From the NCBI GenBank assembly GCA_964371255.1, contig CAYJKV010000001.1, positions 163,140 through 227,139 on the forward strand: a DNA stretch of 64,000 bases. Reading direction: 5' to 3'. Below are positions 1-54,003 of this stretch, piece by piece; the first letter of the stretch is position 1, and each line of letters begins with the position of its first letter. Position numbers and translations under genes: made by a program. A model generated the notes under the pieces. The model was not told where the DNA came from and searched no databases. It saw only the letters and a list, made by a program, of their open reading frames with translations. This DNA is from an uncultured Candidatus Saccharibacteria bacterium. GTDB taxonomy: Bacteria; Patescibacteriota; Andersenbacteria; UBA10190.

Positions 1-424
1 TCTTGACAGTGATGGCATAAGTCAAGGAATTGCCAGGGCGAGTGATATCGCGGTGATCCGTTTTTGTGACGGTTAAGCTGGCTTCCTCATCATTATCGTC
101 CTCTGGTTCTGGGCTTGGTTCGGGAGATGGACTGGGTGAAGGTGAGGGACTGGGGCTTGGAGACGGGCTGGGAGACGGTGATGGGCTAGGAGTTGGGGTA
201 GGTGAGGGGCTGGGGCTTGGAGACGGGCTGGGAGACGGTGACGGGCTGGGAGACGGTGATGGAGAGGGACTGGGGGACGGAGTTGGGCTGGGTGAAGGAA
301 CGACGCAAGCAACTGTGTCGTTTGGGCTTAGTAAAGCAAATAAAGTACCGGCCATGGCTACTACGACCATGAAGATTAGGACAACAAAGATCAATTGTTT
401 TTGGTGTTGAAAGTGGTTTTTCAT
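1..424 (-). CDS. Secreted/cell-surface protein, partial (3' end beyond window start): N-terminal hydrophobic signal/TM, long (Pro-Ser)n linker, then DUF11-like beta-repeat segment
   Basis: Reverse-complement translation from ATG at 422-424 gives MKNHFQHQKQLIFVVLIFMVVVAMAGTLFALLS...PSPSPTPSPSPSPS...EPSPEPEDD...LTVTKTDHRDITRPGNSLTYAITVK with no stop before position 1. It is missing from the ORF track because it has no in-window stop. The Gly-rich plus-strand ORF 66..410 is its antisense mirror. Confidence 0.6.
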   Translation of the reverse strand, partial: MKNHFQHQKQLIFVVLIFMVVVAMAGTLFALLSPNDTVACVVPSPSPTPSPSPSPSPSPSPSPSPSPSPSPSPSPTPTPSPSPSPSPSPSPSPSPSPSPSPEPSPEPEDDNDEEASLTVTKTDHRDITRPGNSLTYAITVK

Positions 425-10848: not shown

Positions 10849-11107
10849 AGAAACAAATATAAAATAAGGGAAAATGCAAAACGACAAGCGCAAAGCAACA
10901 ACGTAAAACCTAAGACTACCAGAGGTTTTTCAAATGACTATAGCGCAGACTGGAAATAATAGATTGTTATATAAAGTCTTTGTATAGTTCTAATTAGCGT
11001 CGAAGAAGTTGACAAGTAGGTATAATTAGAGTATGATTTAGCGTTAATTTTGGACAGTACCTTTTATTTCATTGTGGTATTAGCCACAGCCGAGAGCTTT
11101 ATTTTTC

Positions 11108-11136
11108 CCCATGTCCACCTCCGGGGTGGACATGGG
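11108..11136. promoter_or_regulatory. Perfect 12 bp-arm palindrome CCCATGTCCACC-tccgg-GGTGGACATGGG preceded by a T-run, about 135 bp upstream of the atypical gene at 11272
   Basis: Read directly. A second copy is at 48664..48692. Confidence 0.6.
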
Positions 11137-11271
11137 AAACATGGTGCGGAGAGATGCGAGATAAAAAGTTCTCTGCTGTGGCTAAGTTATGTGGCTTGTC
11201 TTTACAGCAGTTTTCTGAATCCGCAACGATGTTCATCGGAACAATGTTGCACTGCACAAAGGAGCGGAACT

Positions 11272-19229: not shown

Positions 19230-20570
19230 TTAGCCTCGACCGACGGAATGATATACAAATCCTTTGGTGGCCATGTCGGCGGGATCGAACATGTTGCGGC
19301 CGTCGATGATAATTGGATTTTTTAGAAGTGAAGACACTTTTTCCCAGTTAGGAGTTTTGAATTCGTCCCAATCGGTGAGAATTATCAAAGCATCGGCGTC
19401 TTTAAGAGGCTCATACATGTCCTTGCAATAAAGTAACTGATGACCCAGTTCAACTTTCGCAGTAGCGGTTGCTTCAGGGTCATAGGCATGGACGGAGGCG
19501 CCGTCGTTGTGAAGGTGTTCAATGATGGGCACGGAAGGGGCATTCCGCATGTCGTCGGTATTTGGTTTAAAAGCTAACCCCCAGACTGCGATTTTTTTAC
19601 CTTTAATGACCCAGAGAGCCTGCTCAATTTTTTGCAGGAACAAGGTACGGGCTTGTTTGTTAATCTTTTCCACCTCTTCCAATAAACCAAACTTGTAACC
19701 CAACTCCTCCGCGATCGTTATGAAGGCCGAGACGTCTTTGGGGAAGCAGGAGCCGCCATAGCCAATGCCGGCGTTTAGGAAGTGGGTATTAATGCGCGAA
19801 TCCATACCCATGCCTTGGGCGACGCGATCAATGTTGGCGCCAGAGAGCTCACAGATGCGGGCGACGGCATTGGCAAAGGAGATTTTCAACGCTAGAAAGG
19901 AGTTGCTGGCGTGTTTAATGAGTTCGGCGCTCTTGACGTCGGTGACGATAAATGGAGCGTCAATCGGGGCATATATTTCCCGCATAATTTTTTCTGCGCG
20001 CTGGTTGGATACACCGACCACTATGCGGTCTGGTTCGAGAAAATCTTTAATAGCTGATCCTTCGCGAAGGAATTCGGGATTGCTCACGATATCAAAATCA
20101 ATCTTTGCTCCTTGATGGTGGAGACCGCGCTTGGTATATTGCGCGATTGTTTGAGCTACCCTTTCACCGGTTTGCACTGGAACGGTGCTTTTGTCGACGA
20201 CAACTTTATAGCTAGTGGCTACTTCGGCAATTTCGCGAGCGGCGGCCGCGACATAAGATAAGTCAGCTTTCCCTGATGGCAGAGGCGGTGTGTTGACGGC
20301 TATAAAGATGACGTCGGAATCGTTTACGGCGTCTTTGAGACTGGAAGTGAAGGATAGGCGTTTGGCTTTGACATTTTTTGCGACTAACTTGTCCAAGCCG
20401 GGCTCATAGATAGGCATAACACCTTTTTTCAACTTGGCGATCTTCTCTTTGTTATTGTCGACAAGAATGACTTGGTGACCTATCTCGGACAAGGCAGTAC
20501 CAGAAACCAAACCAACATAACCGGCGCCGATGAATGACAAACGATGTTTTTTAAACTTAGTTTTGGGCAT
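19230..20570 (-). CDS. UDP-glucose/GDP-mannose dehydrogenase family protein (nucleotide-sugar 6-dehydrogenase)
   Basis: N-terminal Rossmann GAGYVGLVSG, catalytic Cys motif GGSCFPKD, and a C-terminal UDP-binding domain. Confidence 0.9.
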   Translation of the reverse strand: MPKTKFKKHRLSFIGAGYVGLVSGTALSEIGHQVILVDNNKEKIAKLKKGVMPIYEPGLDKLVAKNVKAKRLSFTSSLKDAVNDSDVIFIAVNTPPLPSGKADLSYVAAAAREIAEVATSYKVVVDKSTVPVQTGERVAQTIAQYTKRGLHHQGAKIDFDIVSNPEFLREGSAIKDFLEPDRIVVGVSNQRAEKIMREIYAPIDAPFIVTDVKSAELIKHASNSFLALKISFANAVARICELSGANIDRVAQGMGMDSRINTHFLNAGIGYGGSCFPKDVSAFITIAEELGYKFGLLEEVEKINKQARTLFLQKIEQALWVIKGKKIAVWGLAFKPNTDDMRNAPSVPIIEHLHNDGASVHAYDPEATATAKVELGHQLLYCKDMYEPLKDADALIILTDWDEFKTPNWEKVSSLLKNPIIIDGRNMFDPADMATKGFVYHSVGRG

Positions 20571-22596: not shown

Positions 22597-23361
22597 ATGA
22601 GTGAAGTATTGGCGGTGACTAATCAAAAAGGGGGAGTAGGCAAAACGACCACCAGTATAAATTTGGGCAGTTACTTGGCGGCGGCAGGAGCTAAGGTGGC
22701 AATTATAGACTTGGACCCGCAGGCCAATGCCACATCAGGTCTGGGGATTAAGGTCACGGAGGAGACACCAACATTATACGAGGTGCTGACAGGCCAAGTG
22801 GATGCGACTAAAGCTTTGCAGGCGACCGATCATGATAATTTGAACATTATTCCGTCAAACACTAATTTGGCTGGAGCAGCGATTGAATTGATGGACAAGC
22901 CTTATCGGGAGTACAGATTGCGCCGGGCCGTAAGAGCCCTGAAGGAATATTATGATTTTATTTTAATTGATTGCCCGCCCAGTTTGGGATTATTAACGAT
23001 TAACGGTTTAGTGGCGGCAGATCGTTTGCTGATACCGGTCCAGTGTGAATTTTTTGCAGTGGAAGGCCTGAGCCAGTTGCTGGAAACAGTGGAGTTGGTC
23101 CGGGCTCACTTGAATCCCCGGCTGCAAGTATTGGGAGCGCTGCTGACTATGTATGATCGAAGAACGGCTATGGCGCGAAAAATTGTTAAGCAAGTGCGCC
23201 AGACCTTTCCGGGCCATGTGTTCGAAAGTGTCATACCGAGAAATACCGAGCTGGCGGAGGCGCCAAGTAAAGGCCGGTCTATTTTAGGTTATGCTAAGTA
23301 TTCGAGAGGGGCGAAAGCTTATGAATTTTTATCCGCTGAACTAATTAATCTATATAAATGA
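22597..23361 (+). CDS. parA: Chromosome partitioning ATPase ParA/Soj
   Basis: Deviant Walker A KGGVGKTTT with ParA-family architecture. Stop overlaps the parB start (ATGA). Confidence 0.9.
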   Translation: MSEVLAVTNQKGGVGKTTTSINLGSYLAAAGAKVAIIDLDPQANATSGLGIKVTEETPTLYEVLTGQVDATKALQATDHDNLNIIPSNTNLAGAAIELMDKPYREYRLRRAVRALKEYYDFILIDCPPSLGLLTINGLVAADRLLIPVQCEFFAVEGLSQLLETVELVRAHLNPRLQVLGALLTMYDRRTAMARKIVKQVRQTFPGHVFESVIPRNTELAEAPSKGRSILGYAKYSRGAKAYEFLSAELINLYK

Positions 23362-24761
23362 TGAAAAATGTATTTCGAGGGGGATTAAGATCATTAATAC
23401 CTAACCGTAAGGTGCAGGACGCTGATGAAGTGTTAGATGAATTAGAAGAAGATGAATTGGACCAAGAAGAGGAAACCGAAGAAGCAAAACCACGACGTAA
23501 GCTGCCAATTCAAGTGGAAGGTGAGCAAGGGGATGATGAAGAGATGACACAAGAGCAACCGATGGAAAAGCCTGGCGGCGGGCAGGAAGATGAAGAATTA
23601 TGGCAGGCGCCTGCCGCACCGAAGGTAACGCCGCTACGGATCGATTTTGATGACGATGAAGGGCCTGATCTGAGATTGCAACAAAAAAAGACTCGGCCTG
23701 CCAGTGCGCCAGTACCGGTAAAGCAAAAAGAAACCATAGCTAAAAAGGAAGAACTGGTCAGGGAGAAGAAGCCAGCAGCGGAAAATAAAACAGTAGAGCT
23801 GGAACAGGAAGTGAAGCGAGACGAAAAAGAGGCAACGGTAAACGTCAATCCACCAGTGAGTGTGGCAGCAAAACCGACCAGTGGAAATATTTGGGATAAA
23901 CACGAGGGAGATGTACAACACGTGAAAGTGGATGAAATTGGGATAAATCCGAACCAGCCGCGTCGCCAGTTTGATAAAGTCGATATGGGAGAGTTGAAAA
24001 GCTCGATTGCCCAACACGGCATATTGCAGCCGTTAGTGGTGCGACGCACGGAGGATGGATTTGAATTGGTGGCGGGAGAGCGGCGCCTGCGCGCGGCCAG
24101 GGATTTGGGTTGGGAAAAAGTACCGTGTGTGATCAGACGGGACGTGACCTCCGGGGCATCACGTTTAGAATTGGCGTTAATTGAGAATATTCAAAGAGAA
24201 GACTTGAATCCGGTGGAAGAAGCGTTGGCATACAAGCAACTCAATGAAGAATACGGGATGACGCATGAAGAGATTGGCGAGCGAGTGGGGCGGAGCCGAG
24301 TCGGCATAACTAATATTATTAGGGTGCTGCAGCTGCCGGAAGAAATACAGCGCGGGCTAATTGACAACAAGATCTCGCCGGGACATGCCAAGGCGATTTT
24401 GATGATACCGGACGAAGAAAAACAATTGCGCTTCTATCGGCACTTAGTGGAGGAAGGACTGACGGTTCGCAAGGCGGAAACCCGAGCCCGCCGGATCCAG
24501 CGAACGATGCGATTGGATGATCCAATGCGTCGGAAGCGCAAGGGCAGGACCGCGTTTGAGATGAAGTACAGCGGTGTGTTAGAAGACCGGTATGGTTTTG
24601 ATGCCAAGGTGCGGTTTGATGAGCACAAAAATCGTTATGAAGTAGTATTTCGATGCTTCAATAAGGATGAGATAGATCAGCTGCTTGGCCGTTTAACGGG
24701 AACAGAGTCGCTGCCAGAAGAAAGCCAAGATAAAGACGTGATTGAGGCAGACGAAGACTAG
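23358..24761 (+). CDS. parB: Chromosome partitioning protein ParB/Spo0J with an unusually long acidic/Lys-rich N-terminal extension (about 200 aa)
   Basis: ParB box GERRLRAAR, an HTH, and a C-terminal dimerisation region. The N-terminus is low-complexity D/E/K-rich. Confidence 0.88.
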   Translation: MMKNVFRGGLRSLIPNRKVQDADEVLDELEEDELDQEEETEEAKPRRKLPIQVEGEQGDDEEMTQEQPMEKPGGGQEDEELWQAPAAPKVTPLRIDFDDDEGPDLRLQQKKTRPASAPVPVKQKETIAKKEELVREKKPAAENKTVELEQEVKRDEKEATVNVNPPVSVAAKPTSGNIWDKHEGDVQHVKVDEIGINPNQPRRQFDKVDMGELKSSIAQHGILQPLVVRRTEDGFELVAGERRLRAARDLGWEKVPCVIRRDVTSGASRLELALIENIQREDLNPVEEALAYKQLNEEYGMTHEEIGERVGRSRVGITNIIRVLQLPEEIQRGLIDNKISPGHAKAILMIPDEEKQLRFYRHLVEEGLTVRKAETRARRIQRTMRLDDPMRRKRKGRTAFEMKYSGVLEDRYGFDAKVRFDEHKNRYEVVFRCFNKDEIDQLLGRLTGTESLPEESQDKDVIEADED

Positions 24762-25202
24762 ATTACGTAATTTAAGATGGTAGCGGGGGAGTCTTATATT
24801 GTGTCACTTTTTTAAAAACCCCCCTACGGTATTGCAGGGCTGAGAGTGAAACGCATAATCCTTGATCCGAATTGTAGAGCATGGCTTAGGTTACGTCCTT
24901 AATGATCAGGGCATACATGTTATTAAGGATAGTTAGATTCCGTCGTCTTTGTCGCGTAACAATGTATCCCGTGCTTTGACCGGTCGACCGTCGAGGTAAT
25001 AACACCACGACTCACCGTCCTCAAATAGCTCTAGCGGCATGGGCTCTGTCATGTGTTGGTCGATCATTGGCAACCTCGATTGTTCAGGAAATAGATGGTA
25101 GGGACGGCGATGCAGTTGGAAGGCCTAGGACAAAAAAACACCGCCAACGAGGACGGTGAATAACGAACAACAGAGTCATTTACGCTGCGAAGGCTGCCAC
25201 GC

Positions 25203-25610
25203 TCATACCCCGTCTCGATGCTGCCACGTTAGATGATTACCGTCATAGCCATCGGCAATCATAAGGCAGTTACCGTGCACAACATCAAGAACTGTGAACA
25301 GCGCAAAACCATAACAAAGGCGTGCTGGCAGCTCCTTGCCAATATTGTAGTGCGCTCCTTCGGGACCAGTAAGTGCTGGACCAGGTCCTACTTGGAGAAC
25401 AACAATACGATCTCCGGTCTGGTCAACAAAGGTTCCAAGAAACTTCAGGTAAGCACCTCCTCCATAACTCGAGTAGAAGTTTTCTTGGTTCTTGCCTTCA
25501 AGAGGAAAATCATACCCGATAAAGAGGCTAGTTGTCCTCAGCGGTCTACCTGCTCGGTCTTTCCACTCGCTCATATTAAGTCTCCAGTCCAGAAAGTGGT
25601 GATAAAACAT
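25203..25610 (-). CDS. Hypothetical protein in a compositionally atypical gap downstream of topA (possibly a gene remnant)
   Basis: 135 aa ORF (internal M at codon 13), higher GC than neighbours, no recognisable motifs. Weak call. Confidence 0.35.
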   Translation of the reverse strand: MFYHHFLDWRLNMSEWKDRAGRPLRTTSLFIGYDFPLEGKNQENFYSSYGGGAYLKFLGTFVDQTGDRIVVLQVGPGPALTGPEGAHYNIGKELPARLCYGFALFTVLDVVHGNCLMIADGYDGNHLTWQHRDGV

Positions 25611-25761
25611 GTGCTAGAACTTCGTGTCGTTGCTTGGTGTTGATCCAGCAACACAAGGCTGGATTGAGGTGGGAAGCGCGTTGGTGAATTGCATAGTGAA
25701 CAAGGGTATAGTATTACAGCCCAATCTATGGTTTGTCAACCTCACTGACAGATGTTGTGTT

Positions 25762-27999
25762 TTAGTCTGGAGCCGGGGCGGTGTAGCTGCATTCTTTATT
25801 GGAGCAGCGGACAGTATTTTTCGCGGCAAAAACGACCAGACTTTGGCACATCGGACACTTGTCGCCAGTTGGTTTGCTCCAGTAGGCATTCTCGCATTTG
25901 GGGTATTGGTTGCAGGCGTAGAAAACCCGGCCGCGTTTGGATTTTTTCTCGACGATGTCGCCTTCATTACATTTAGGACATTTTACACCGACGGTCTTTT
26001 CAATTTTCTTAATAAATTTGCAGTCGGGATAACCGGAGCAGCCCATAAACGGTCCGAAGCGGCCGCGCTTAAGAGTCAAGGGTTTGCCACAATCAGGACA
26101 GGTTTCTTTAGCGGCTAGTTGCTCCAATTCTTTATCCGGTCCGATGTTCTCGGTGAATTTACAGTCAGGATAATTGCTGCACGCTTTGAATTTACCGAAG
26201 CGTCCCAGTTTGATAACTAATTCATTCTGGCATTTAGGACATGACTCGCCGGTTTTTTCCTGGGTTAGTTCATCCTTATTGAGTTCTTTTTGTTTCTGCT
26301 TGATGGTCTTATGAAATGGTCCGTAGAATTCTTTAATAATTGGCTGCCATTTCTTTTTACCGGAGGCGATTTGATCTAAATCGGCTTCAACAAGAGCGGT
26401 AAAGTCAGTATCCACGATGGTGGGGAAATGATCTTTTAATAAATTAGTGACCAGTGTACCGATTTCGGTGGGTTCTAATCTTTTCGCGTCATTTTTTTGT
26501 ACGTACTCTCTTTTTTGAACGGTATCGATGGTGGGGGCATAGGTGCTTGGCCGGCCAATACCAAAGTGTTCCAATGCTTTAACGAGGGTGGCTTCCGAGT
26601 AGCGGGCGGGCGGCTCCGTAAAGTGTTGCTCGGGTGCGAGCTTGAGGAAATCCAGTTGATCTTTAGCGGCTAGCGCGGGCAGCAAGGCTTCCTTAAAGTA
26701 AGCTTTGTCCTGAGAGAAAGCACGGGTATAGCCGGGGAAAGCGATAGTGGTGCCAATAGCTTTAAATTGAAATGAGTGGTTGTCAGTCTGTTTAGCAGGA
26801 ACTGCGTCAATTAAAGCCGTGACCATTTTTAGTTTGGCATCAGCCATTTGGCTGGCAATCATGCGCTCCCAGATTAACCGATATAGTTTTAGTTGATCGG
26901 GAGAGAGATAGGCGGTGATTTGCTCCGGCAGGCGGGACGGTTTGGTGGGACGGATTGCCTCATGCGCTTCCTGCGCGCCCTTGGACTTGTTTTTGAATTT
27001 GCGAGCCTCCGGTAGAGCAAAGTCTGGTCCAAAATTTTGCGTGATAACGTCATGGGCTTGTTTTGTTGCCTCATCGGCGAGGCTGACAGAGTCAGTACGC
27101 ATATAAGTAATCAAACCGACGGGACCTTTGGCTCCGAGTTCGATACCTTCATATAACTGCTGGGCTAACATCATGGTTTTTTTACTGGAAAAACCAAGTT
27201 TACTAAAGGCTGTTTGCTGCAGCGTACTGGTGGTGAAAGGGGGCGGAGCAGATCGTTTCTTATCGGTCGTCGCAACATCGTTCACAATGTAGGCGGCTGA
27301 GCCGAGTGCTTTTAAGATGGTGTCCACTTCCGTTTTGGACTTAAGGTCCTTCTTGGCCACTTTTTGGCCGTTATTAATAAATATTTCGGCGGTAAAGGGT
27401 GTATCGTTCTTGGATAAATGAGCAGTCAAAGACCAATACTCTTCAGGTTTGAAAGCATTGATTTCTTCTTCGCGTTCGACGATCAAGCGGACCGCGACGG
27501 ATTGCACACGCCCAGCGGAAAGACCGCGACGGATTTTTTTCCAGAGCAGGGGGGAAAGTTCGTAACCAACTAGCCGATCTAGAATGCGGCGGGCTTGCTG
27601 CGCGTCCACCAAATTCTGATCGATGGAGCGGGGATTAGTAATGGCTTTTTGAATAGCCGACTTAGTAATTTCATCGAAAGTGATGCGTTGGCAGGTGGCG
27701 GGATCGGCGCCAAGAATGTTAGCCAGATGCCAGGCAATGGCTTCTCCTTCACGATCTTCGTCAGTGGCGAAGTAAATCTCGGCAGCGTGCTTGGCAGATT
27801 TTTTTAACGCCGCGACGTTTTTTTTCGCTTTGTCTGGAATAACATAGGTGGGCAAGAAGTTCTTTTTTGTATCGACGCCGAGTTTGCTTTTAGGCAGATC
27901 GCGGATATGGCCGTAACTGCTGGTTACCTTATATCCAGTGCCTAGATATTTCTGAATTGTTTTCGCTTTGGCCGGTGACTCGACAATGACTAATTTCAT
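25762..27999 (-). CDS. topA: DNA topoisomerase I with C-terminal Cys4 zinc-ribbon repeats
   Basis: TOPRIM N-terminus (MKLVIVESPAKAKTI), the catalytic Tyr region, and three C-terminal CxxC...CxxC zinc ribbons. Confidence 0.95.
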   Translation of the reverse strand: MKLVIVESPAKAKTIQKYLGTGYKVTSSYGHIRDLPKSKLGVDTKKNFLPTYVIPDKAKKNVAALKKSAKHAAEIYFATDEDREGEAIAWHLANILGADPATCQRITFDEITKSAIQKAITNPRSIDQNLVDAQQARRILDRLVGYELSPLLWKKIRRGLSAGRVQSVAVRLIVEREEEINAFKPEEYWSLTAHLSKNDTPFTAEIFINNGQKVAKKDLKSKTEVDTILKALGSAAYIVNDVATTDKKRSAPPPFTTSTLQQTAFSKLGFSSKKTMMLAQQLYEGIELGAKGPVGLITYMRTDSVSLADEATKQAHDVITQNFGPDFALPEARKFKNKSKGAQEAHEAIRPTKPSRLPEQITAYLSPDQLKLYRLIWERMIASQMADAKLKMVTALIDAVPAKQTDNHSFQFKAIGTTIAFPGYTRAFSQDKAYFKEALLPALAAKDQLDFLKLAPEQHFTEPPARYSEATLVKALEHFGIGRPSTYAPTIDTVQKREYVQKNDAKRLEPTEIGTLVTNLLKDHFPTIVDTDFTALVEADLDQIASGKKKWQPIIKEFYGPFHKTIKQKQKELNKDELTQEKTGESCPKCQNELVIKLGRFGKFKACSNYPDCKFTENIGPDKELEQLAAKETCPDCGKPLTLKRGRFGPFMGCSGYPDCKFIKKIEKTVGVKCPKCNEGDIVEKKSKRGRVFYACNQYPKCENAYWSKPTGDKCPMCQSLVVFAAKNTVRCSNKECSYTAPAPD

Positions 28000-28150
28000 A
28001 AATTAAAAAAAATAGAAGGGACCGGGTGAAGTGCAATATAAATTAATCAATATTTGAATAGTATAGCGTATTGATATATGTAAATGGTATCTGGTGTCAA
28101 ATAGGAAATGAAAAAGTCAAAATCCAAATTATGAATATGTAGTTCTGAAT

Positions 28151-28182
28151 AACATTACGATATTATGTAATATCGTAATGTT
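28151..28182. promoter_or_regulatory. 12-6-12 palindrome ACATTACGATAT-TATGTA-ATATCGTAATGT, copy A, between the dprA stop and topA start
   Basis: Read directly from the sequence. Perfect 12 bp inverted arms with an asymmetric 6 bp spacer. Confidence 0.7.
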
Positions 28183-28215
28183 ATGAGAAAAGAATTGGCA
28201 TAATTTTAACCGGTT

Positions 28216-28247
28216 ATTATTACGATATTATGTAATATCATAATAAT
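28216..28247. promoter_or_regulatory. Same palindrome, copy B (variant ...ATATCATAATAAT), 65 bp from copy A, same orientation
   Basis: Core TTACGATATTATGTAATATC(A)TAA is identical apart from one position. Confidence 0.65.
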
Positions 28248-28299
28248 CAGATAACAAGAAGCGGATTGGTAAATCGATGGATCAACTTTGAGCGGATGG

Positions 28300-29175
28300 T
28301 CATTTTTTCACATATTTCATGCCGCCGAGGTTGTCGACGGCGTCGATCAATTCTAGTTCGGTTAAGGTGACTGACAGGATGGGCGAGGGTAGACGGGTGA
28401 TAGATACTAACTGATCGACATGCAGAGGGGTGGAGGATAGAGCGGCCATGACAATTTTTTGCTGGTCGGTGAGAGTGGCTGCTAAAACGTGGTTTGCAGT
28501 GGCGACGACTGGATCAATGTTAAGCAGTGCGAAAACATCTTCGGCAGTCAGTAGGGGTGTGGCGCCTTGTTGTATAAGTTGATTTGTGCCGGCTGATAAT
28601 AAGTCTGTAATATTGCCGGGGATGGCAGCAACATCTCGACCGTATTCCAGCGCGAGACGGGCGGTGATAAGCGAGCCGGAGCGGGCGGCGGCTTGAACGA
28701 CTAACGTGGCCATCGTCAGACCGGCGATGATGCGGTTGCGAGCGGGGAAATGAAATTGCAGCGGGGCTGTGCCGGCAGGAAATTCTGAAATTATCACTCC
28801 GCCGTGGTCGATTATGGCGTTGGCGAGCTTCACATGGAGTCGAGGGTAAATTGAAGCATCGTCAATACCGGAGCCTAATACCGCAATAGTTGGCGTGTTA
28901 TTAGCGAGACACAAATTGTGGGCAATAGAATCGATGCCGTAGGCTAAACCGGAAACAAGCGGCACACCGTTTTTAACTAAAGGGGTTAACAGGCGCTCGA
29001 TGGCTTGTTTGCCATAGAAAGATGATTTACGACTGCCGACGACGGCGAGTAGGGGAGAAGCATTAAGAATGGCGGCGTTGCCTCGATAAAAAAGTGGAGT
29101 TGGCGGGTCGGAAATTTCATTCAGCAGGGCGGGGTAGAGAGGACTGTCGAGGGTAAGTGTCTGGATGTCGGACAT
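28300..29175 (-). CDS. dprA: DNA processing protein DprA (Smf)
   Basis: Rossmann-like DprA core (LLAVVGSRKSSFYGKQAIERL...GLAYGIDSIAH). Sits immediately upstream of topA, the conserved smf-topA arrangement. Confidence 0.88.
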   Translation of the reverse strand: MSDIQTLTLDSPLYPALLNEISDPPTPLFYRGNAAILNASPLLAVVGSRKSSFYGKQAIERLLTPLVKNGVPLVSGLAYGIDSIAHNLCLANNTPTIAVLGSGIDDASIYPRLHVKLANAIIDHGGVIISEFPAGTAPLQFHFPARNRIIAGLTMATLVVQAAARSGSLITARLALEYGRDVAAIPGNITDLLSAGTNQLIQQGATPLLTAEDVFALLNIDPVVATANHVLAATLTDQQKIVMAALSSTPLHVDQLVSITRLPSPILSVTLTELELIDAVDNLGGMKYVKK

Positions 29176-29369
29176 GAATATAGTTTAACCTAAACAGCTT
29201 CAGTAATATAAATATTCGGTGATTACAGTCTAAGGTCCAATCATGTGTCCCCGCCCTAGACATAGCACTGCCCGCTGCGGACGAGAAAACCCTAATGACA
29301 AAAACACGGAAAAATTAAGACAAAATCCCACGAGCAAATTGGTATCAAAAGTTCAAGACGAAGGCGGGT

Positions 29370-32264
29370 TCAGTCGAGCGTGTTTAGCATAATGATAATT
29401 TGTTGCAATGTGTGCGGCGTTATCGACGGGGCAGTGAGGACCAGGTCGTTGTTGTTGATAGACCAATCATCGGTGAGACGTGGAGTCAGGCCGTCACCTT
29501 TAGGGAGACGCGCAAAGGAGAGAATTATCCGATAAAATGGCCGCCGCTTTGACGGAGTGATGTGGCGGGTGTCGATCAAGAGAACCTGGTGGCGGGCGGC
29601 CAAGTGTTGTATTTGCAGTAGGCGATAGAGGTTTTGTAAAGGCATAGGCGGAGGGCCATATTGATGAGTGATTTGGGTCATATTTTCCGCTAAGTCTGCC
29701 AGGGTTCGCGAGCGGGATAGTTTTTGGTAAAAGCTGGTGCGCTCGGCTAAATCCGGTAAGTAGGACGTCGGAATGTGAGCAGAAACGGGCAGGTTCGTAT
29801 TAATATCGTGGCGCAAGGCGGGACCGCCGGTGGTTTGATCAATGGCGTCATTAACCATATCTAAATAGAGTTGGACGCCAACAGCGTTGACGGAGCCAGA
29901 CTGTTGTTCTCCCAGAAGATTGCCGGCCCCCCTAATTTCCAGATCGCGACGGGCCAGGGACCAACCCGATCCTAGACGTGAAGCTTCGGTGAGAGCGGTT
30001 AGGCGCTGGCGTTGAATGGAGGTTAGTTCGGTTTGGTTGTAAAGAAATAGGGCATAGCCCTGCTGCTTCCGGCGACCAATGCGACCGCGGAGCTGATACA
30101 GGTCAGACAGACCAAAATGAGTCGCGTGAGTCACGACGAGAGTGTTGGCGTGAGGCAAGTCCAGCCCGTTAGAAATAATGGTGGAACTGATCAAAATATC
30201 GACCAGGCGCTGATCAAACCGTTGCATAGTCGTGGCGATTTGCTGGCTGGACATTTGGCCGTGCAGTAAGGCGATGCGGGCAGTCGGTGCCAGGCCGGCG
30301 ATGCGATGGGCGAGCGCAGCCAGCTGACGCACCTTGGGGGCGACAATATATATTTGTCCTTGGCGTTTAAGCTCGCGATGCAGGGCTTGTTTGATGACAG
30401 CATCACTGTCCCGGCCGACCCAGGTAAAGACGTTTTTGCGGCCGGGCGGGGCGGTACTGATAACTGACAGTTGTTTTAGGTTAGACAAGGCCATGGATAA
30501 GGTGCGGGGAATGGGTGTAGCGGTGAGAGAAAGGAGGTCTAAGCGGGACCGAAGTTTTTTAAAATGCTCCTTATGGGCAACGCCAAACCGTTGCTCTTCG
30601 TCGATGATCACCAAGCCTAAATTATGCCAGGTAGTTTTTTTAGACAGCAGAGCATGGGTGCCGATGACGATACTCACTTCCCCGGCCGCAATTTTATTTC
30701 GGACAGCCTGCCGGTCCGCGGTCGTGGAAAAACGTGATAGGGAGGCAATCTGTCTGGCCTGATGAGGCAGACGGCTAATAAATAGGTCATAGTGCTGCTG
30801 GACTAAAATGGTGGTGGGGGCTAAGATGGCGACTTGCTGATGATTGTTGGTCGCGTGACAGGCAGCCCGGATGGCCAATTCAGTTTTTCCAAATCCAACA
30901 TCACCGATAATTAATCGATCCATGGGAGTGGCCGCAGTTAAGTCGCTTTGAATATCTCGCCAAGCCGCGGCTTGGTCAGGCGTTAGCTCGTAGGGAAAAG
31001 TATTGGTCAGCCACTCGTCTAAAACTGGGTCTAAGTAGTAGAGAGGACGGGTAGTTTGCTGCCGCAGAGCTTCATTCTTAAGAAGTTCGCGCGCGAATGC
31101 CGCGGCATCGCGCTGGGCATGACGGCGGCTCTTAAGCCAAATCTGACCGCCCAAGCGATGAATAATGGGAGTGGTTTCGCCGAGGTAGGGGGAAACTTTA
31201 TAAGCGTGTTCGACGGGCACAGACAACGTATCGCCGGCAGCGTAACGAAGAATTAAATAGTCTTTAGTGTAATCGTTGATGGTGCGTTTTTTCATCCCCT
31301 CGTAAATGCCGATACCGTGATCACTATGCACGGCTGGCTTGTTTTCTTGCAGCTCTGTAAGGAGGGCTAGCCCGCGCGCGGAGGAAATCGGTCGAGGCTG
31401 ATGAGTGTTGGGGGGTTGGAGAGCGGGTGGAAGAGAGAGGGTCGGAAACGGGAAAGCTGGCGATAACGAATCGTAGGTTACAGTGCTGGTACCAGATAAT
31501 TGTACATAGGAGGGACGGATAACCGTGGCAAAATCAATTATCTTGTTCAAAGGGTAAAGTTGATCGGGAAAAGCGACCGGCGGGAGATTGAGCATATTCA
31601 ATGTTTGCCGGCGAGGGCCGGAATCATGCTCGATTTTTTCTAAATTGGGACCGTACAGGGTGACGGTATAATATCCTTGATGCAGCGGATGCTGAATCAT
31701 TATTTGTTCGCCGCGGATCATAAATGAGCCTGGCTCCACGGTGGATCGATGCCGGCGGTAACCATGCGCTTGCAACTGTTTAATCAATTCCGCTTGAGAA
31801 ACGCGGGCGTTAACATGCCAAATAAGCTGGTTATGCTGATAGTCAATCGGGCTGGGAAGATTAAGGTCGGCTAAGGATACGGGAATGACAAAGTGATGGT
31901 GCGCGGTACCTGCTAATAAATGGTGAACACCTAAGCTTAAGGTGGAGCAAATGTCGCCGGTAATCTCCTGTTCGGTTAATTGGCCGGAAATAAAATGCCA
32001 TGCCTCATTACCTTTAAGCTGCTGAGTCAAAAAATTTAGATAATTTGTCAGCGCCTGGCCTTGATGAAGCGGCTGGTCAATAAAAAGGATCTTATGTGGT
32101 TGATAGAATGTGGCTAGAAATAACGGTAAATGTTCTGAGGGGATGCTGAGAGGAATGATCCCCGGATGAGTTTTTAATAACCGAACAACGCGGTCGCTAA
32201 AATTGAGCAGTGGCCGTTCCGGCTTGGCGGAGTCTGATAAGGGGGTTTTTAGTATTATATTCAT
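29370..32264 (-). CDS. mfd: Transcription-repair coupling factor Mfd (shortened N-terminus)
   Basis: CarD/TRCF RNAP-interaction domain (DHGIGIYEGM...LSVPVEHAYKVSPYLG) and SF2 helicase motifs (GDVGFGKTE, DEEQRFGV, LTATPIPRTL). Confidence 0.88.
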   Translation of the reverse strand: MNIILKTPLSDSAKPERPLLNFSDRVVRLLKTHPGIIPLSIPSEHLPLFLATFYQPHKILFIDQPLHQGQALTNYLNFLTQQLKGNEAWHFISGQLTEQEITGDICSTLSLGVHHLLAGTAHHHFVIPVSLADLNLPSPIDYQHNQLIWHVNARVSQAELIKQLQAHGYRRHRSTVEPGSFMIRGEQIMIQHPLHQGYYTVTLYGPNLEKIEHDSGPRRQTLNMLNLPPVAFPDQLYPLNKIIDFATVIRPSYVQLSGTSTVTYDSLSPAFPFPTLSLPPALQPPNTHQPRPISSARGLALLTELQENKPAVHSDHGIGIYEGMKKRTINDYTKDYLILRYAAGDTLSVPVEHAYKVSPYLGETTPIIHRLGGQIWLKSRRHAQRDAAAFARELLKNEALRQQTTRPLYYLDPVLDEWLTNTFPYELTPDQAAAWRDIQSDLTAATPMDRLIIGDVGFGKTELAIRAACHATNNHQQVAILAPTTILVQQHYDLFISRLPHQARQIASLSRFSTTADRQAVRNKIAAGEVSIVIGTHALLSKKTTWHNLGLVIIDEEQRFGVAHKEHFKKLRSRLDLLSLTATPIPRTLSMALSNLKQLSVISTAPPGRKNVFTWVGRDSDAVIKQALHRELKRQGQIYIVAPKVRQLAALAHRIAGLAPTARIALLHGQMSSQQIATTMQRFDQRLVDILISSTIISNGLDLPHANTLVVTHATHFGLSDLYQLRGRIGRRKQQGYALFLYNQTELTSIQRQRLTALTEASRLGSGWSLARRDLEIRGAGNLLGEQQSGSVNAVGVQLYLDMVNDAIDQTTGGPALRHDINTNLPVSAHIPTSYLPDLAERTSFYQKLSRSRTLADLAENMTQITHQYGPPPMPLQNLYRLLQIQHLAARHQVLLIDTRHITPSKRRPFYRIILSFARLPKGDGLTPRLTDDWSINNNDLVLTAPSITPHTLQQIIIMLNTLD

Positions 32265-48450: not shown

Positions 48451-48663
48451 TGAGATTAAAACGCAAAGCGAAAAACAACAGAGAAAAACTAAAAGAAGCC
48501 AAACGCTTGCACGGAATAGTGGGTTGAGATATCAACAAGGGGTTCTTTGGGTGTGCGATCTATGGTTTGTCGTTATGACATAAGGAGCACTGCACACTAG
48601 GAGTGGGATGAGGAGGCTTGTGTCTCTATGACGTTATTCATCGTGTCCCGCTCTTTTTATTTT

Positions 48664-48692
48664 CCCATGTCCACACCTGGTGTGGACATGGG
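48664..48692. promoter_or_regulatory. Second copy of the palindrome, CCCATGTCCACA-cctgg-TGTGGACATGGG, preceded by TTTTTATTTT, just 3' of the minus-strand coiled-coil ORF
   Basis: Arms match the copy at 11108 in 11 of 12 positions, and the flanking T-run is conserved. Confidence 0.6.
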
Positions 48693-48699
48693 GTAGTTG

Positions 48700-51744: not shown

Positions 51745-52881
51745 TCATAAGCGGTTATCTTGGATTTGTTGCCGGAGGTCGGCGATATAACTATTGAAGA
51801 AATGAAGGTTATGGAAGGTTAGGAGCTTTAAGCCGGTGATCTCTTGAGCCCTGATCAAATGTGCGATGTAACTTCGTTTATAATCCTGGCAAACATAGCA
51901 GGGGCACTTGGGGTCTAATGGTTTTTGGTCATTCATGAATACGGCATTTTTCAGATTTAATTTTCCGTTATTCGTAAAGGCCGTCCCATGACGGGCATAG
52001 TGGGTGGGAACAATACAGTCGAAGGTATCAATGCCGGCTTTGATAATGGCTGGAATATCTTCGAGGTGGCCGATGCCGAGCAGGTGGCGCGGCTTGTCCG
52101 GCGGTAATTCTTGAAGAACGGTCTGGAGAATCTCCGGCATGATAGTTTTGTCGTCACCGTATTCTCCGCCAATGCCAAAACCAGCGAAAGGTAGCGAGCC
52201 AATGAATTGGGCGGATTGCTGACGCAAGTCGGCAAACTTGCCGCCTTGCACGATGCCAAAAAGAGCTTGGTTAGACGTTTTGGCCGACAAGCATTGTTTG
52301 GCCCAGCGATGGGTGCGTGCCAATGATGCTTTGGTGTATTCCTTATTGGCCACCGGGGAGGTTGCTTCGTCAAAAGTGTAGATGATATCAGCGCCAAGCT
52401 TTTGTTGGATGGCGATCGATTCCGGGGGTCCGATAAAAAGCTGGCGACCATCAACGGGAGAGCGAAAAGTGACGCCCTCATCAGTAATTTTTATATTTTT
52501 TGGCTGCTGGCCGACGGTAACGGTCTCGTCGATCTTTTGTTTGAGAACTTTACCGACGCCATGGTCACGGCCGAACCCGAGGCTGAATACCTGAAAGCCC
52601 CCCGAGTCGGTCATGAGGGGATGACGCCAATTCATAAAATCGTGCAAACCGCCGGCTTGATCGACGAGCTCTTCGCCGGGCTTCAAATGCAGGTGAAAGG
52701 TATTCGCAATTAACATTTGGCAGCCGGCTGCCTCGGCTTCCTGACTGGTCAATGTTTTAATGACAGCTTGGGTTGCCACGGGAACGAGGGTCGGAGTGGC
52801 TACTTCACCATGAGGTGTTTTTAGAATGCCAAGACGAGCGTCGCTCTGGGTGGATTGTTGGCTGATACTAAATTCAATCAT
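51745..52881 (-). CDS. tgt: Queuine tRNA-ribosyltransferase (tRNA-guanine transglycosylase)
   Basis: TIM-barrel Tgt N-terminus (GILKTPHGEVATPTLVPVAT) and zinc site CPCYVCQDY...H. Confidence 0.9.
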   Translation of the reverse strand: MIEFSISQQSTQSDARLGILKTPHGEVATPTLVPVATQAVIKTLTSQEAEAAGCQMLIANTFHLHLKPGEELVDQAGGLHDFMNWRHPLMTDSGGFQVFSLGFGRDHGVGKVLKQKIDETVTVGQQPKNIKITDEGVTFRSPVDGRQLFIGPPESIAIQQKLGADIIYTFDEATSPVANKEYTKASLARTHRWAKQCLSAKTSNQALFGIVQGGKFADLRQQSAQFIGSLPFAGFGIGGEYGDDKTIMPEILQTVLQELPPDKPRHLLGIGHLEDIPAIIKAGIDTFDCIVPTHYARHGTAFTNNGKLNLKNAVFMNDQKPLDPKCPCYVCQDYKRSYIAHLIRAQEITGLKLLTFHNLHFFNSYIADLRQQIQDNRL

Positions 52882-52968
52882 GGGTGCGGAAGGGATGATA
52901 AGGTATTAATATAAAGAGGTTTGTTGTAGGTGTATCATAGAGCTCAATAAAGAAAAAGACCCGGTGAT

Positions 52969-53000
52969 AATATTACGATATTACATAATGTCGTAATATT
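52969..53000. promoter_or_regulatory. Same palindrome, copy C (opposite spacer orientation, one mismatch), in the tgt / yerC-like divergent promoter region
   Basis: AATATTACGATAT-TACATA-ATGTCGTAATATT, about 45 bp upstream of the regulator start codon. Confidence 0.7.
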
Positions 53001-53044
53001 ATTTAGGCAGGGAACAAGCGGTTTAATAAAGAAGGAGGTGTTAA

Positions 53045-53503
53045 ATGATGGGCAGATTTGATTATCGAGGATTGTCTGCCGAGAAGCGGCGCGAGTTTTT
53101 GGATAGGCTGGCTGATATAGTCGCGCACATTCGAAAAAAGGAAGAAGCACGATTTTTTCTTGAGAGACTTTTAACAGAAAGTGAAGTGGTGATGCTAATG
53201 CGCCGGTTGGAAGTGGCCGAACTGCTGCTGGACGGATTAACGTATGAAAAGATCAGGCGTAAATTGGGCGTGGGAACGTCAACGATTTATATCGTTGATA
53301 AGTGGCTGACTGAAGCAGCCTATGAATACAGAGAGATACGAGCGTATCAGAGAAGGATAGGCAAAGATGCCAAGCGAGCCAGAGAAAGAGACAGTAAACG
53401 CGCAAAGGGGCATGTGGAATCGACGATGCCTGGAACATTAAGGCAGATGATTCGTCATGATGCACGATTTATCCTGTTTCGTTTGCTGTTGGGCAATGTT
53501 TAG
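53045..53503 (+). CDS. TrpR-like YerC/YecD family DNA-binding regulator
   Basis: LTESEVVMLMRRLEVAELLLDGLTYEKIRRKLGVGTSTIYIV is the YerC/YecD TrpR-like HTH. The gene is flanked on both sides by the 12-6-12 palindrome. Confidence 0.8.
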   Translation: MMGRFDYRGLSAEKRREFLDRLADIVAHIRKKEEARFFLERLLTESEVVMLMRRLEVAELLLDGLTYEKIRRKLGVGTSTIYIVDKWLTEAAYEYREIRAYQRRIGKDAKRARERDSKRAKGHVESTMPGTLRQMIRHDARFILFRLLLGNV

Positions 53504-53572
53504 ATCGGAACCGAAGGAGTGTGACGCGGTCAGGAGATTTATATAAGTGGATTGATGGGGGGTGATGATTTA

Positions 53573-53604
53573 CATTACGATATTATGTAATATCGTAATA
53601 TGTG
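53573..53604. promoter_or_regulatory. Same palindrome, copy D (exact match to copy A), 70 bp downstream of the yerC-like regulator stop
   Basis: ACATTACGATATTATGTAATATCGTAATAT. Confidence 0.7.
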
Positions 53605-53712: not shown

Positions 53713-54003
53713 TTATTGATGGGCTGATGGCGAGATGGTTTGCTCGTAGTCGGGAAAGTAGGTACTGATCAGCGAGAGGTTAAACTTGGGCAGAATTGAT
53801 TGTTTGGATTCGCGTTTGAGGAGAAAGGCGAAGGATTTTTGAATTAGCTCATCGGGTGTAATGGTACCGGCCGTTAATTTTTGCCAGTATTTTTTATCTA
53901 AGGTGACGGTGTGCGAGGTGGTGTCGGGGTCGGTGCCTAGATCGACGTGGAATTGCCAACTGTCATTAGTTTTAGCCAGTTCTTCGATGTGTATTTTCTC
54001 CAT
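53713..54003 (-). CDS. Small hypothetical protein
   Basis: About 96 aa ORF from MEKIHIEELAK, with no motif recognised. Confidence 0.4.
   Translation of the reverse strand: MEKIHIEELAKTNDSWQFHVDLGTDPDTTSHTVTLDKKYWQKLTAGTITPDELIQKSFAFLLKRESKQSILPKFNLSLISTYFPDYEQTISPSAHQ

Follow-up and report, generated by a model that had tools for sequence, protein, structure and literature searches.

Predicted operators on both sides of a TrpR/YerC-like regulator gene in a patescibacterial genome

The palindromes and the gene between them

The window analyzed here, a stretch of 64,000 nt from an uncultured patescibacterium (Andersenbacteria), contains a gene for a TrpR/YerC-like DNA-binding protein (hereafter the regulator) that is bracketed by two copies, C and D, of a palindrome; two solo copies, A and B, occupy the spacer between dprA and topA (Table 1). 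To our knowledge, the control of transcription has hardly been explored in Patescibacteria (Candidate Phyla Radiation).

The 30-mer ACATTACGATATTATGTAATATCGTAATGT has a sole exact match in the 64-kb window, copy A (28152–28181); copy D (53572–53601) differs from it by one mismatch and copy C (52970–52999), matching in the opposite orientation, by three, with zero matches expected by chance (100 shuffles). The 24-nt core TTACGATAT-N6-ATATCGTAA occurs at four sites with 0–1 mismatch (28155, 28220, 52973, and 53575; 0.02 expected), and it was through this pattern that copy B was found (core at 28220–28243), a degenerate copy with one core mismatch and different outer bases. A position weight matrix (PWM) for the family, built from one site per lineage (see below), gave scores of 26–32 bits to copies A–D, against a shuffle maximum of 16.2 (20 shuffles), and detected no further sites in the 64 kb. 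According to open reading frame (ORF) maps and Pfam, the four copies are all intergenic. A preliminary description of this DNA had reported four copies, all outside coding sequence; this was confirmed, distances included, far beyond chance. Similarity among the copies ends at 37 bp or less and there is no extended homology.

The repeat had also been described as 12-6-12 with an asymmetric 6-bp spacer. Its geometry is actually 14-2-14, ACATTACGATATTA-TG-TAATATCGTAATGT, because the TATGTA “spacer” is self-complementary save for the central TG/CA, to which the asymmetry is confined; this centre is a single transition away from CG. The inverted arms extend to 17 bp in copy A and 16 bp in copy C. 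Likewise, the opposite orientation of copy C, from which it had been called inverted, does appear in the match but depends solely on the central CA versus TG.

Copy C sits in the 163-bp divergent spacer between tgt and the regulator gene, ending 45 bp before the regulator ATG (53045) and lying 89–118 bp upstream of tgt (start 52881), with TATTAT hexamers at its outer ends on both strands. Copy D is located between the regulator gene and a convergent ORF of ~96 amino acids (aa); no -10-like box was found 22–33 nt from its centre on either side, and a terminator scan called no terminator-like site or U-tract there. Copies A and B share the 300-bp gap from the dprA stop (28300) to the topA start (27999), 153–247 bp upstream of topA and 65 bp apart centre-to-centre, and both are accompanied on the topA strand by a -10-like hexamer (CATAAT, 28133..28128, 33 nt from the centre of copy A; TAAAAT, 28208..28203, 23 nt from the centre of copy B). 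An Rfam scan of the window retrieved only two tRNAs and had zero matches at the palindromes; around the sites, scans for sigma-70 promoters and terminators gave counts not above shuffles, except for one terminator-like match inside coding sequence versus 0.4 expected.

The regulator scores 49.6 bits against Pfam Trp_repressor (PF01371; cut-off 27) and narrowly passes the NCBIfam model TIGR02531, “YerC/YecD family TrpR-related protein” (44.3 vs. a cut-off of 42.2); it fails the TrpR equivalog model TIGR01321 (24.7 bits vs. 67.25). Its sequence matches in the PDB are 3FRW, 3KOR, and 3G1C, of YerC type, followed by Escherichia coli TrpR. The AlphaFold model (pLDDT of 80.7 overall, and 84–96 over residues 11–100 as 10-residue block means) retrieved 3KOR, 3FRW, 3G1C, and 1TRR at the top of a Foldseek search, with a probability of 1.0 and a TM-score to target of 0.62–0.72. 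In this model the recognition helix runs on as a long basic helix (78–122), followed by two short low-confidence helices. No catalytic domain was found, with only a TrpR-like helix-turn-helix (HTH) plus helices in Pfam and in the AlphaFold model, and the only Pfam match was to TrpR, with none to Y1_Tnp. The extension of ~55 aa after the TrpR core is kept in all 28 aligned subfamily members and, together with the length of 152 aa (vs. a single-domain family norm of ~90–110 aa), indicates a distinct subfamily. Searched alone against 1.8 billion representative proteins, the C-terminal 61 aa gave zero matches, this query being probably too short for the library. Scans of viral contigs yielded one weak, HTH-only match to the protein, and 11 chance matches to the palindrome pattern with no regulator gene nearby.

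Table 1. Coordinates of the genes, protein regions and predicted operator sites discussed in the text.
Feature	Position	Strand	Basis or remarks
TrpR/YerC(YecD)-family DNA-binding protein gene, 152 aa	53045..53503	+	Pfam, NCBIfam, fold
TrpR-like core of regulator	residues ~12–97	+	profile/fold
Helix-turn-helix of regulator	residues ~64–92, nt 53234–53320	+	
C-terminal extension of regulator	residues ~98–152, nt 53336–53500	+	basic helix, then conserved DSRFILFRLLLGDF-type tail
Copy C, upstream operator (predicted)	52967..53002	.	16-bp arms; PWM 31.0; centre 61 bp before regulator ATG
Copy D, downstream operator (predicted)	53572..53601	.	PWM 32.0; 68 bp past regulator stop (53503)
Copy A, solo site	28148..28185	.	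dprA-topA spacer; 17-bp arms; PWM 32.0; centre ~167 bp upstream of topA ATG
Copy B, degenerate solo site	28216..28247	.	PWM 26.3; 54 bp after dprA stop
tgt, queuine tRNA-ribosyltransferase	51745..52881	-	Pfam TGT E = 6.6e-129
topA	25762..27999	-	Pfam Topoisom_bac, Toprim, zinc ribbons
dprA	28300–29175	-	ORF map, Pfam

The bracket and its sequence across lineages

A protein search retrieved 38 relatives, and DNA was fetched around those located on longer contigs, resulting in 11 lineages (the window, L020, L021, L023, L025, L037, and L042–L046) with orthologues of 53–68% identity. A palindrome of 24–40 bp occurs on each side of the regulator gene in all 11, centred 23–61 bp before the start codon and 15–200 bp (mostly 15–40 bp) after the stop codon. 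Within a locus the two copies match each other, although the sequence differs from lineage to lineage, and the genes next to them are different in every one of the 11 (a mur/fts cluster, sugar-nucleotide genes, mreB, ribonucleotide reductase with V-ATPase, secA). The upstream and downstream copies are 448–699 bp apart, and these distances, worked by hand, showed no pattern of helical phasing; convergent genes surround six of the 11 downstream copies. The pair does not keep one relative orientation: the copies are direct in L020, L025, L042, and L045, whereas those of the window and L023 are opposed. Ten contigs or assemblies from other samples are collinear with the window, the gene having the same orientation in them, and a metagenome scan for the protein gave six loci only, three of them duplicating known ones. 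The downstream copy is absent for two distant homologues, a 103-aa protein from the patescibacterium STB_112 and a 40%-identical protein (L041), indicating that the bracket belongs to the ~150-aa subfamily.

Extra copies are found in L020 (a second upstream copy), L046 (a second downstream copy) and L025 (a third copy, upstream of an 88-aa ORF), with no additional sites elsewhere within ±4–10 kb of the gene. The PWM likewise detected in each locus the known sites only, with the exception of a perfect palindrome in L042, CTTTCCACATTTC·GAAATGTGGAAAG (20317–20342, score of 22.8; here and below a dot marks the centre), ~10 kb from the regulator gene and at the end of the locus; it finds none in L025, whose GC-rich copies are below threshold. 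The 88-aa ORF of L025 (3504–3977), a predicted membrane protein with no family match, is directly upstream of the regulator gene and is itself bracketed by two identical palindromes, giving an array palindrome-ORF-palindrome-regulator-palindrome. The regulator cassette is on opposite sides of a conserved DUF386-CTP_transf_3 (CMP-sugar-transferase) gene pair in two related genomes, L043 (10001–12037) and L046 (3342–5447).

Aligned on their centres, the palindromes share the half-site ACTnC[G/T]ATATTAC, for a full core ACTnC[G/T]ATATTAC·GTAATAT[C/A]GnAGT, in which C9 and A7 of the half-site do not vary across lineages, with A5 and T4 close to invariant. Most lineages have a fully symmetric centre (TTACGTAA, TCGA, TTTTAAAA). 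Steps of CpG type are spaced 8 bp along the palindromes, and those of the window operators are CG, TG, and CG at -8, 0, and +8 from the centre; 8 bp is also the spacing of TrpR half-sites, as cited in PMC9413887. The 103-aa homologue from STB_112 (39% identity) is preceded, 20 bp upstream of its start codon, by a site (TTACGATA)x2(TATCGTAA)x2, and every STB_112 site is hit by the PWM twice, in registers offset by exactly 8 bp. Residue 78, with which the recognition helix begins, varies with the operator centre: it is T in three lineages, which are not each other's closest relatives, with half-sites that end in T at the centre, M in six lineages with half-sites that end in AC, and V or K in two lineages with half-sites that end in TC. 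This covariation suggests that residue 78 may read the operator centre directly, although with 11 lineages and no phylogenetic correction it is suggestive only.

We scored as -10-like any hexamer with a match of at least 5/6 to TATAAT starting 22–33 nt from the palindrome centre. Such a hexamer faces the gene at seven of the 13 upstream copies and points away from it at none of the 13, and downstream copies lack it in either direction (0/24); our own hypergeometric estimate for 7/13 versus 0/37 in these controls is ~2e-5. A box at this distance would place the operator over the -35 region.

We therefore consider it probable, at roughly 0.65, that the palindromes are operators of the protein encoded between C and D, which would be an autoregulator of a patescibacterial TrpR/YerC(HisR) subfamily. 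The preliminary description had proposed an autoregulated TrpR/YerC-like repressor that recognizes the palindrome, and this proposal gains support from the presence of a particular version of the palindrome beside every orthologue, the half-sites of the distant homologue, the -10-like boxes, and residue 78. That the layout is kept in 11 of 11 lineages points to a self-regulating switch rather than to an invertible cassette or a proven topoisomerase circuit. The novelty among these predicted features lies in the second operator, conserved directly after the stop codon, and in the C-terminal extension.

In the mechanism that we propose, each operator, which consists of half-sites repeating every 8 bp, would be bound by two overlapping dimers, as with E. 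coli TrpR. By its position the upstream operator overlaps the predicted promoter of the regulator gene, on the -35 region, from where the protein would set its own level; in the window, copy C would face tgt as well. The downstream operator may be a pure binding site, which would either form a loop with the upstream site or block RNA polymerase entering or leaving the gene, and the dimer-dimer contacts for such a loop may be made by the C-terminal extension, with its long basic helix and hydrophobic tail. Copies A and B, the solo sites, would be recently acquired operator plus -10 units of the window species, outside of the conserved regulon.

Several points weigh against these palindromes being operators of the regulator. 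The whole case rests on sequence comparison, and the loop or roadblock role of the downstream copy, like that of the extension, is one that we infer. The -10-like boxes were called from a consensus in organisms with uncharacterised promoters, and copy C of the window has no box at +22..33 but TATTAT at +12, a position at which L023 and the extra L025 copy also have their box. Palindromic symmetry exceeds the conserved core, with arms of up to 20 bp, and copies within a genome are near-identical over 25–37 bp, more uniform than typical regulon operators, which is a hint of copy-and-paste spread. The location of six of 11 downstream copies between convergent genes leaves room for a hairpin or terminator role. 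Additionally, the genome of a sister species, Candidatus Andersenbacteria MHHQ01, keeps two intact sites, whereas the protein search shows no close homologue from NCBI records other than that from the window's own genome; this metagenome-assembled genome may be incomplete, or another factor may bind the sites.

The sister species, tgt and topA, and competing explanations

When a genome collection (one genome per species) was scanned with an 18-base pattern, the palindrome with its TATGTA/TACATA centre turned up only in MHHQ01 (L002 and L017), and a variant three times on one contig of STB_112; exact-pattern scans of the whole assemblies gave two sites in MHHQ01 and three in STB_112. Matches outside of Patescibacteria were rejected as true sites, their unrelated spacers pointing to chance. 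The L017 sequence is syntenic with positions 48.8–54.1 kb of the window at ~83% identity, and contains one palindrome 80–108 bp upstream of tgt with a 26/26 identity in the core, which amid flanks of ~83% identity indicates purifying selection. In L017 a lone palindrome joins the sequence that flanks C on the left to that flanking D on the right, the regulator gene and the other palindrome being absent; the segment after the palindrome matches the stretch after D, and its similarity to the window stretch before D was not above shuffles. The earlier suggestion that tgt perhaps belongs to the regulon is thus better supported than that for topA, given the identical core in the sister species, and tgt, because it shares copy C, would be the likeliest additional target.

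The three exact STB_112 sites (L003, 1748–1782; L013, 449–480; L007, 2418–2452) are all on one 76-kb contig, and of the two solo ones, one precedes priA by 65 bp and the other follows a gene for a XerC-like integrase at a distance of 25 bp. The second MHHQ01 locus (L002, 2087–2114) is a solo palindrome in a 1.1-kb stretch without ORFs of at least 80 aa or Rfam matches, downstream of typA and an 82-aa ORF. The ~96-aa ORF convergent with the regulator gene in the window (MEKIHIEEL..., 53713–54003, minus strand) has no family match; it is kept at the protein level in L017, where it is frameshifted, and is missing from public gene calls on identical contigs.

The preliminary description had extended the regulon to topA, as a supercoiling-control circuit in which the repressor governs topA and perhaps tgt. 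Part of this holds, in that two sites 65 bp apart lie in the dprA-topA spacer, their -10-like hexamers face topA at 23–33 nt, with the same geometry as at the autoregulatory sites, and one STB_112 site precedes priA, another DNA-transaction gene. However, two TopA relatives annotated as Andersenbacteria (L048, 92% identical; L049, 72%) keep the mfd-dprA-topA-parBA neighbourhood and lack the palindrome in the dprA-topA spacer. The proximal ~125 bp upstream of topA aligns with L048 and holds no site, while copies A and B are ~50–150 bp upstream of this conserved block, in a distal part that is unalignable. Seven other lineages are also without an extra site within 4–10 kb of the gene, L025 and L042 being the exceptions, and A and B, lying just downstream of dprA as well, could be end-of-gene sites like D. 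We consequently find the topA circuit doubtful: topA is a possible target through copies A and B, and a supercoiling circuit would be at most species-specific, an option for the window species alone, and not a conserved feature of the family. A different explanation, to our mind rather unlikely, is that the unit palindrome-gene-palindrome is a mobile repressor-operator cassette that moves by recombination between copies, a circle with one copy being excised and re-entering at another, so that it leaves solo palindromes and seeds new ones; this is compatible with the protein being a repressor. It would account for the L017 junction within otherwise ~83% identical sequence, the opposite sides of the DUF386-CTP_transf_3 pair occupied in L043 and L046, the neighbours that differ in all 11 lineages, the near-identical sequence over 25–37 bp, without flanking homology, of the copies in any one genome, the absence of the topA solo sites from close relatives, and the unrelated 88-aa ORF of L025 that is bracketed in the same way. 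Conversely, the protein lacks a catalytic domain, none of the 11 lineages has a recombinase linked to the cassette, neither L043 nor L046 has a solo site at the alternative position, and the ten assemblies of the window strain are collinear; moreover, ordinary recombination causing a deletion between 30-bp repeats explains L017 equally well, and loss of synteny is normal in these genomes at 50–70% protein identity. It is quite unlikely, accordingly, that a self-contained cassette hops from operator to operator in patescibacterial genomes, its solo operators at tgt and topA acting as portable regulator-dependent promoter or insulator units.

The palindromes could also act as RNA or DNA hairpins, forming stem-loops in the 5′ untranslated region and at the 3′ end that stabilize or terminate transcripts, with an incidental link to the gene. 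If transcribed, they would form stems predicted at 13–17 bp and -12 to -18 kcal/mol, with z-scores of -5.6 to -6.8; the downstream copies, mostly 15–40 bp past the stop codon and six of them between convergent genes, are suitably placed, symmetry continues beyond the conserved core, and in L023 both arms have changed between the upstream and downstream copies. Yet arm mismatches show no strand bias for G-U versus A-C, copy D has no U-tract or terminator-like call, and Rfam has no match. Hairpin function would not require an identical sequence at unlinked loci or the invariant C9 and A7 across lineages, and it leaves unexplained the covariation with residue 78 and the directional -10 boxes, which makes a hairpin role improbable. 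Finally, the preliminary description had offered as an alternative that these are tyrosine-recombinase core sites, similar to dif or pdif, around an invertible or excisable cassette. They resemble dif in length (28–30 bp) and in their AT-rich centre, the central orientation is not the same in C and D, the STB_112 site after the integrase gene is suggestive, and the presence or absence of the gene in L017 is bounded by sites. Nevertheless, the supposed spacer is symmetric but for one base pair in the window and fully symmetric in most lineages, the relative orientation changes by lineage, and the arms are identical inverted repeats instead of two distinct recombinase-binding arms, with conserved bases that follow the TrpR-type 8-bp register and not an 11-6-11 plan. 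No inversion appears in 10 independent assemblies, which report the majority form only, and there is no recombinase beside the gene in the 11 lineages. The absence of a recombinase gene from the window, already pointed out in the preliminary description, stands for its 35 largest ORFs. The symmetric centre, the varying orientation and the ten collinear assemblies thus make recombination sites around an invertible cassette very improbable.

Known systems and further observations in the window

The closest characterized relative is Bacillus subtilis YerC, which is HisR, a histidine repressor of <100 aa that recognizes a 20-bp palindrome; in about half of the genomes a site precedes the HisR gene itself, and the operator consensus is lineage-specific (PMC9413887). 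The regulator is of the same family (TIGR02531 and PF01371; PDB 3FRW, 3KOR, and 3G1C), and shares with HisR the palindromic, lineage-specific operator and the site at its own gene. It differs in its 152 aa with a conserved C-terminal extension, in its motif (26–30 bp, ACTnCGATATTAC·GTAATATCGnAGT, vs. the 20-bp cacTTTAnnnnnnTAAAgtg of HisR) and in the genes nearby: HisR targets his and histidine-transport genes (PMC9413887), whereas the sites described here are near the regulator gene, tgt and topA, with no his genes close. A second operator after the regulator stop codon, as predicted here, is not described for HisR. With E. coli TrpR (1TRR/1TRO, tandem binding) the regulator shares the fold (Foldseek TM-score to target of ~0.7) and, as predicted, autoregulation and an 8-bp repeat of half-sites for overlapping dimers. 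However, the TrpR half-site is CTAG versus the C-G/T-A-T steps seen here, the score falls below the cut-off of the TrpR equivalog model, and TrpR has no downstream operator.

The layout also recalls other systems. In lambda, the CI repressor gene lies between two operator sets, looping tightens autoregulation and the module co-evolves, as we infer might happen here; CI, however, belongs to an unrelated protein family and has triple operators 2.4 kb apart (OL and OR), both with promoters, whereas here single palindromes of 26–40 bp are ~500–700 bp apart, only the upstream one is associated with a promoter, and looping is a proposal. As with REP sequences and their RAYT proteins, a single-copy gene is flanked by cognate palindromes of 20–40 bp, with intergenic solo copies and a sequence particular to each lineage; yet RAYT is an HUH/Y1 nuclease and the regulator is a TrpR-like HTH protein without a nuclease motif, and REPs number tens to hundreds per genome, compared to four copies in 64 kb and 2–3 exact copies in whole related assemblies. 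The dif/pdif (XerC/XerD) modules are similarly short gene units bounded by ~28-bp sites, with site-bounded gain and loss between relatives, but the palindromes lack an asymmetric 6-bp centre, distinct XerC and XerD arms, a conserved relative orientation, and a linked recombinase.

The comparison provides a concrete candidate regulator-operator pair, with a 26-bp consensus, a predicted tandem register of 8 bp, a covarying residue 78, and a layout of promoter and post-stop operators. Should the downstream site serve in looping or in blocking polymerase, this would be a compact and insulated autoregulatory module, suited to small, gene-dense genomes and a possible part for synthetic biology. If the module were mobile, it would be a transcription factor that seeds its own binding sites, and its regulon would spread by copy-and-paste rather than via point mutation.

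Regarding the rest of the window, parA and parB adjoin topA-dprA-mfd (22597–32264), a neighbourhood also kept in L048 and L049, and a search for parS-like sites in the window gave matches at chance level, none of them convincing. GC skew is strongly positive (+0.13 to +0.29) across the whole window regardless of gene strand, the plus strand being G-rich, with no switch indicative of an origin or terminus within 1–64000. A second family of repeated palindromes, with arms CCCATGTCCAC, occurs as TTCCCCATGTCCACCTCCGGGGTGGACATGGGAAA at 11105–11139 and as TCCCATGTCCACACCTGGTGTGGACATGGGG at 48663–48693, the latter between convergent genes; a shared terminator is one possibility, a site for another regulator a second.

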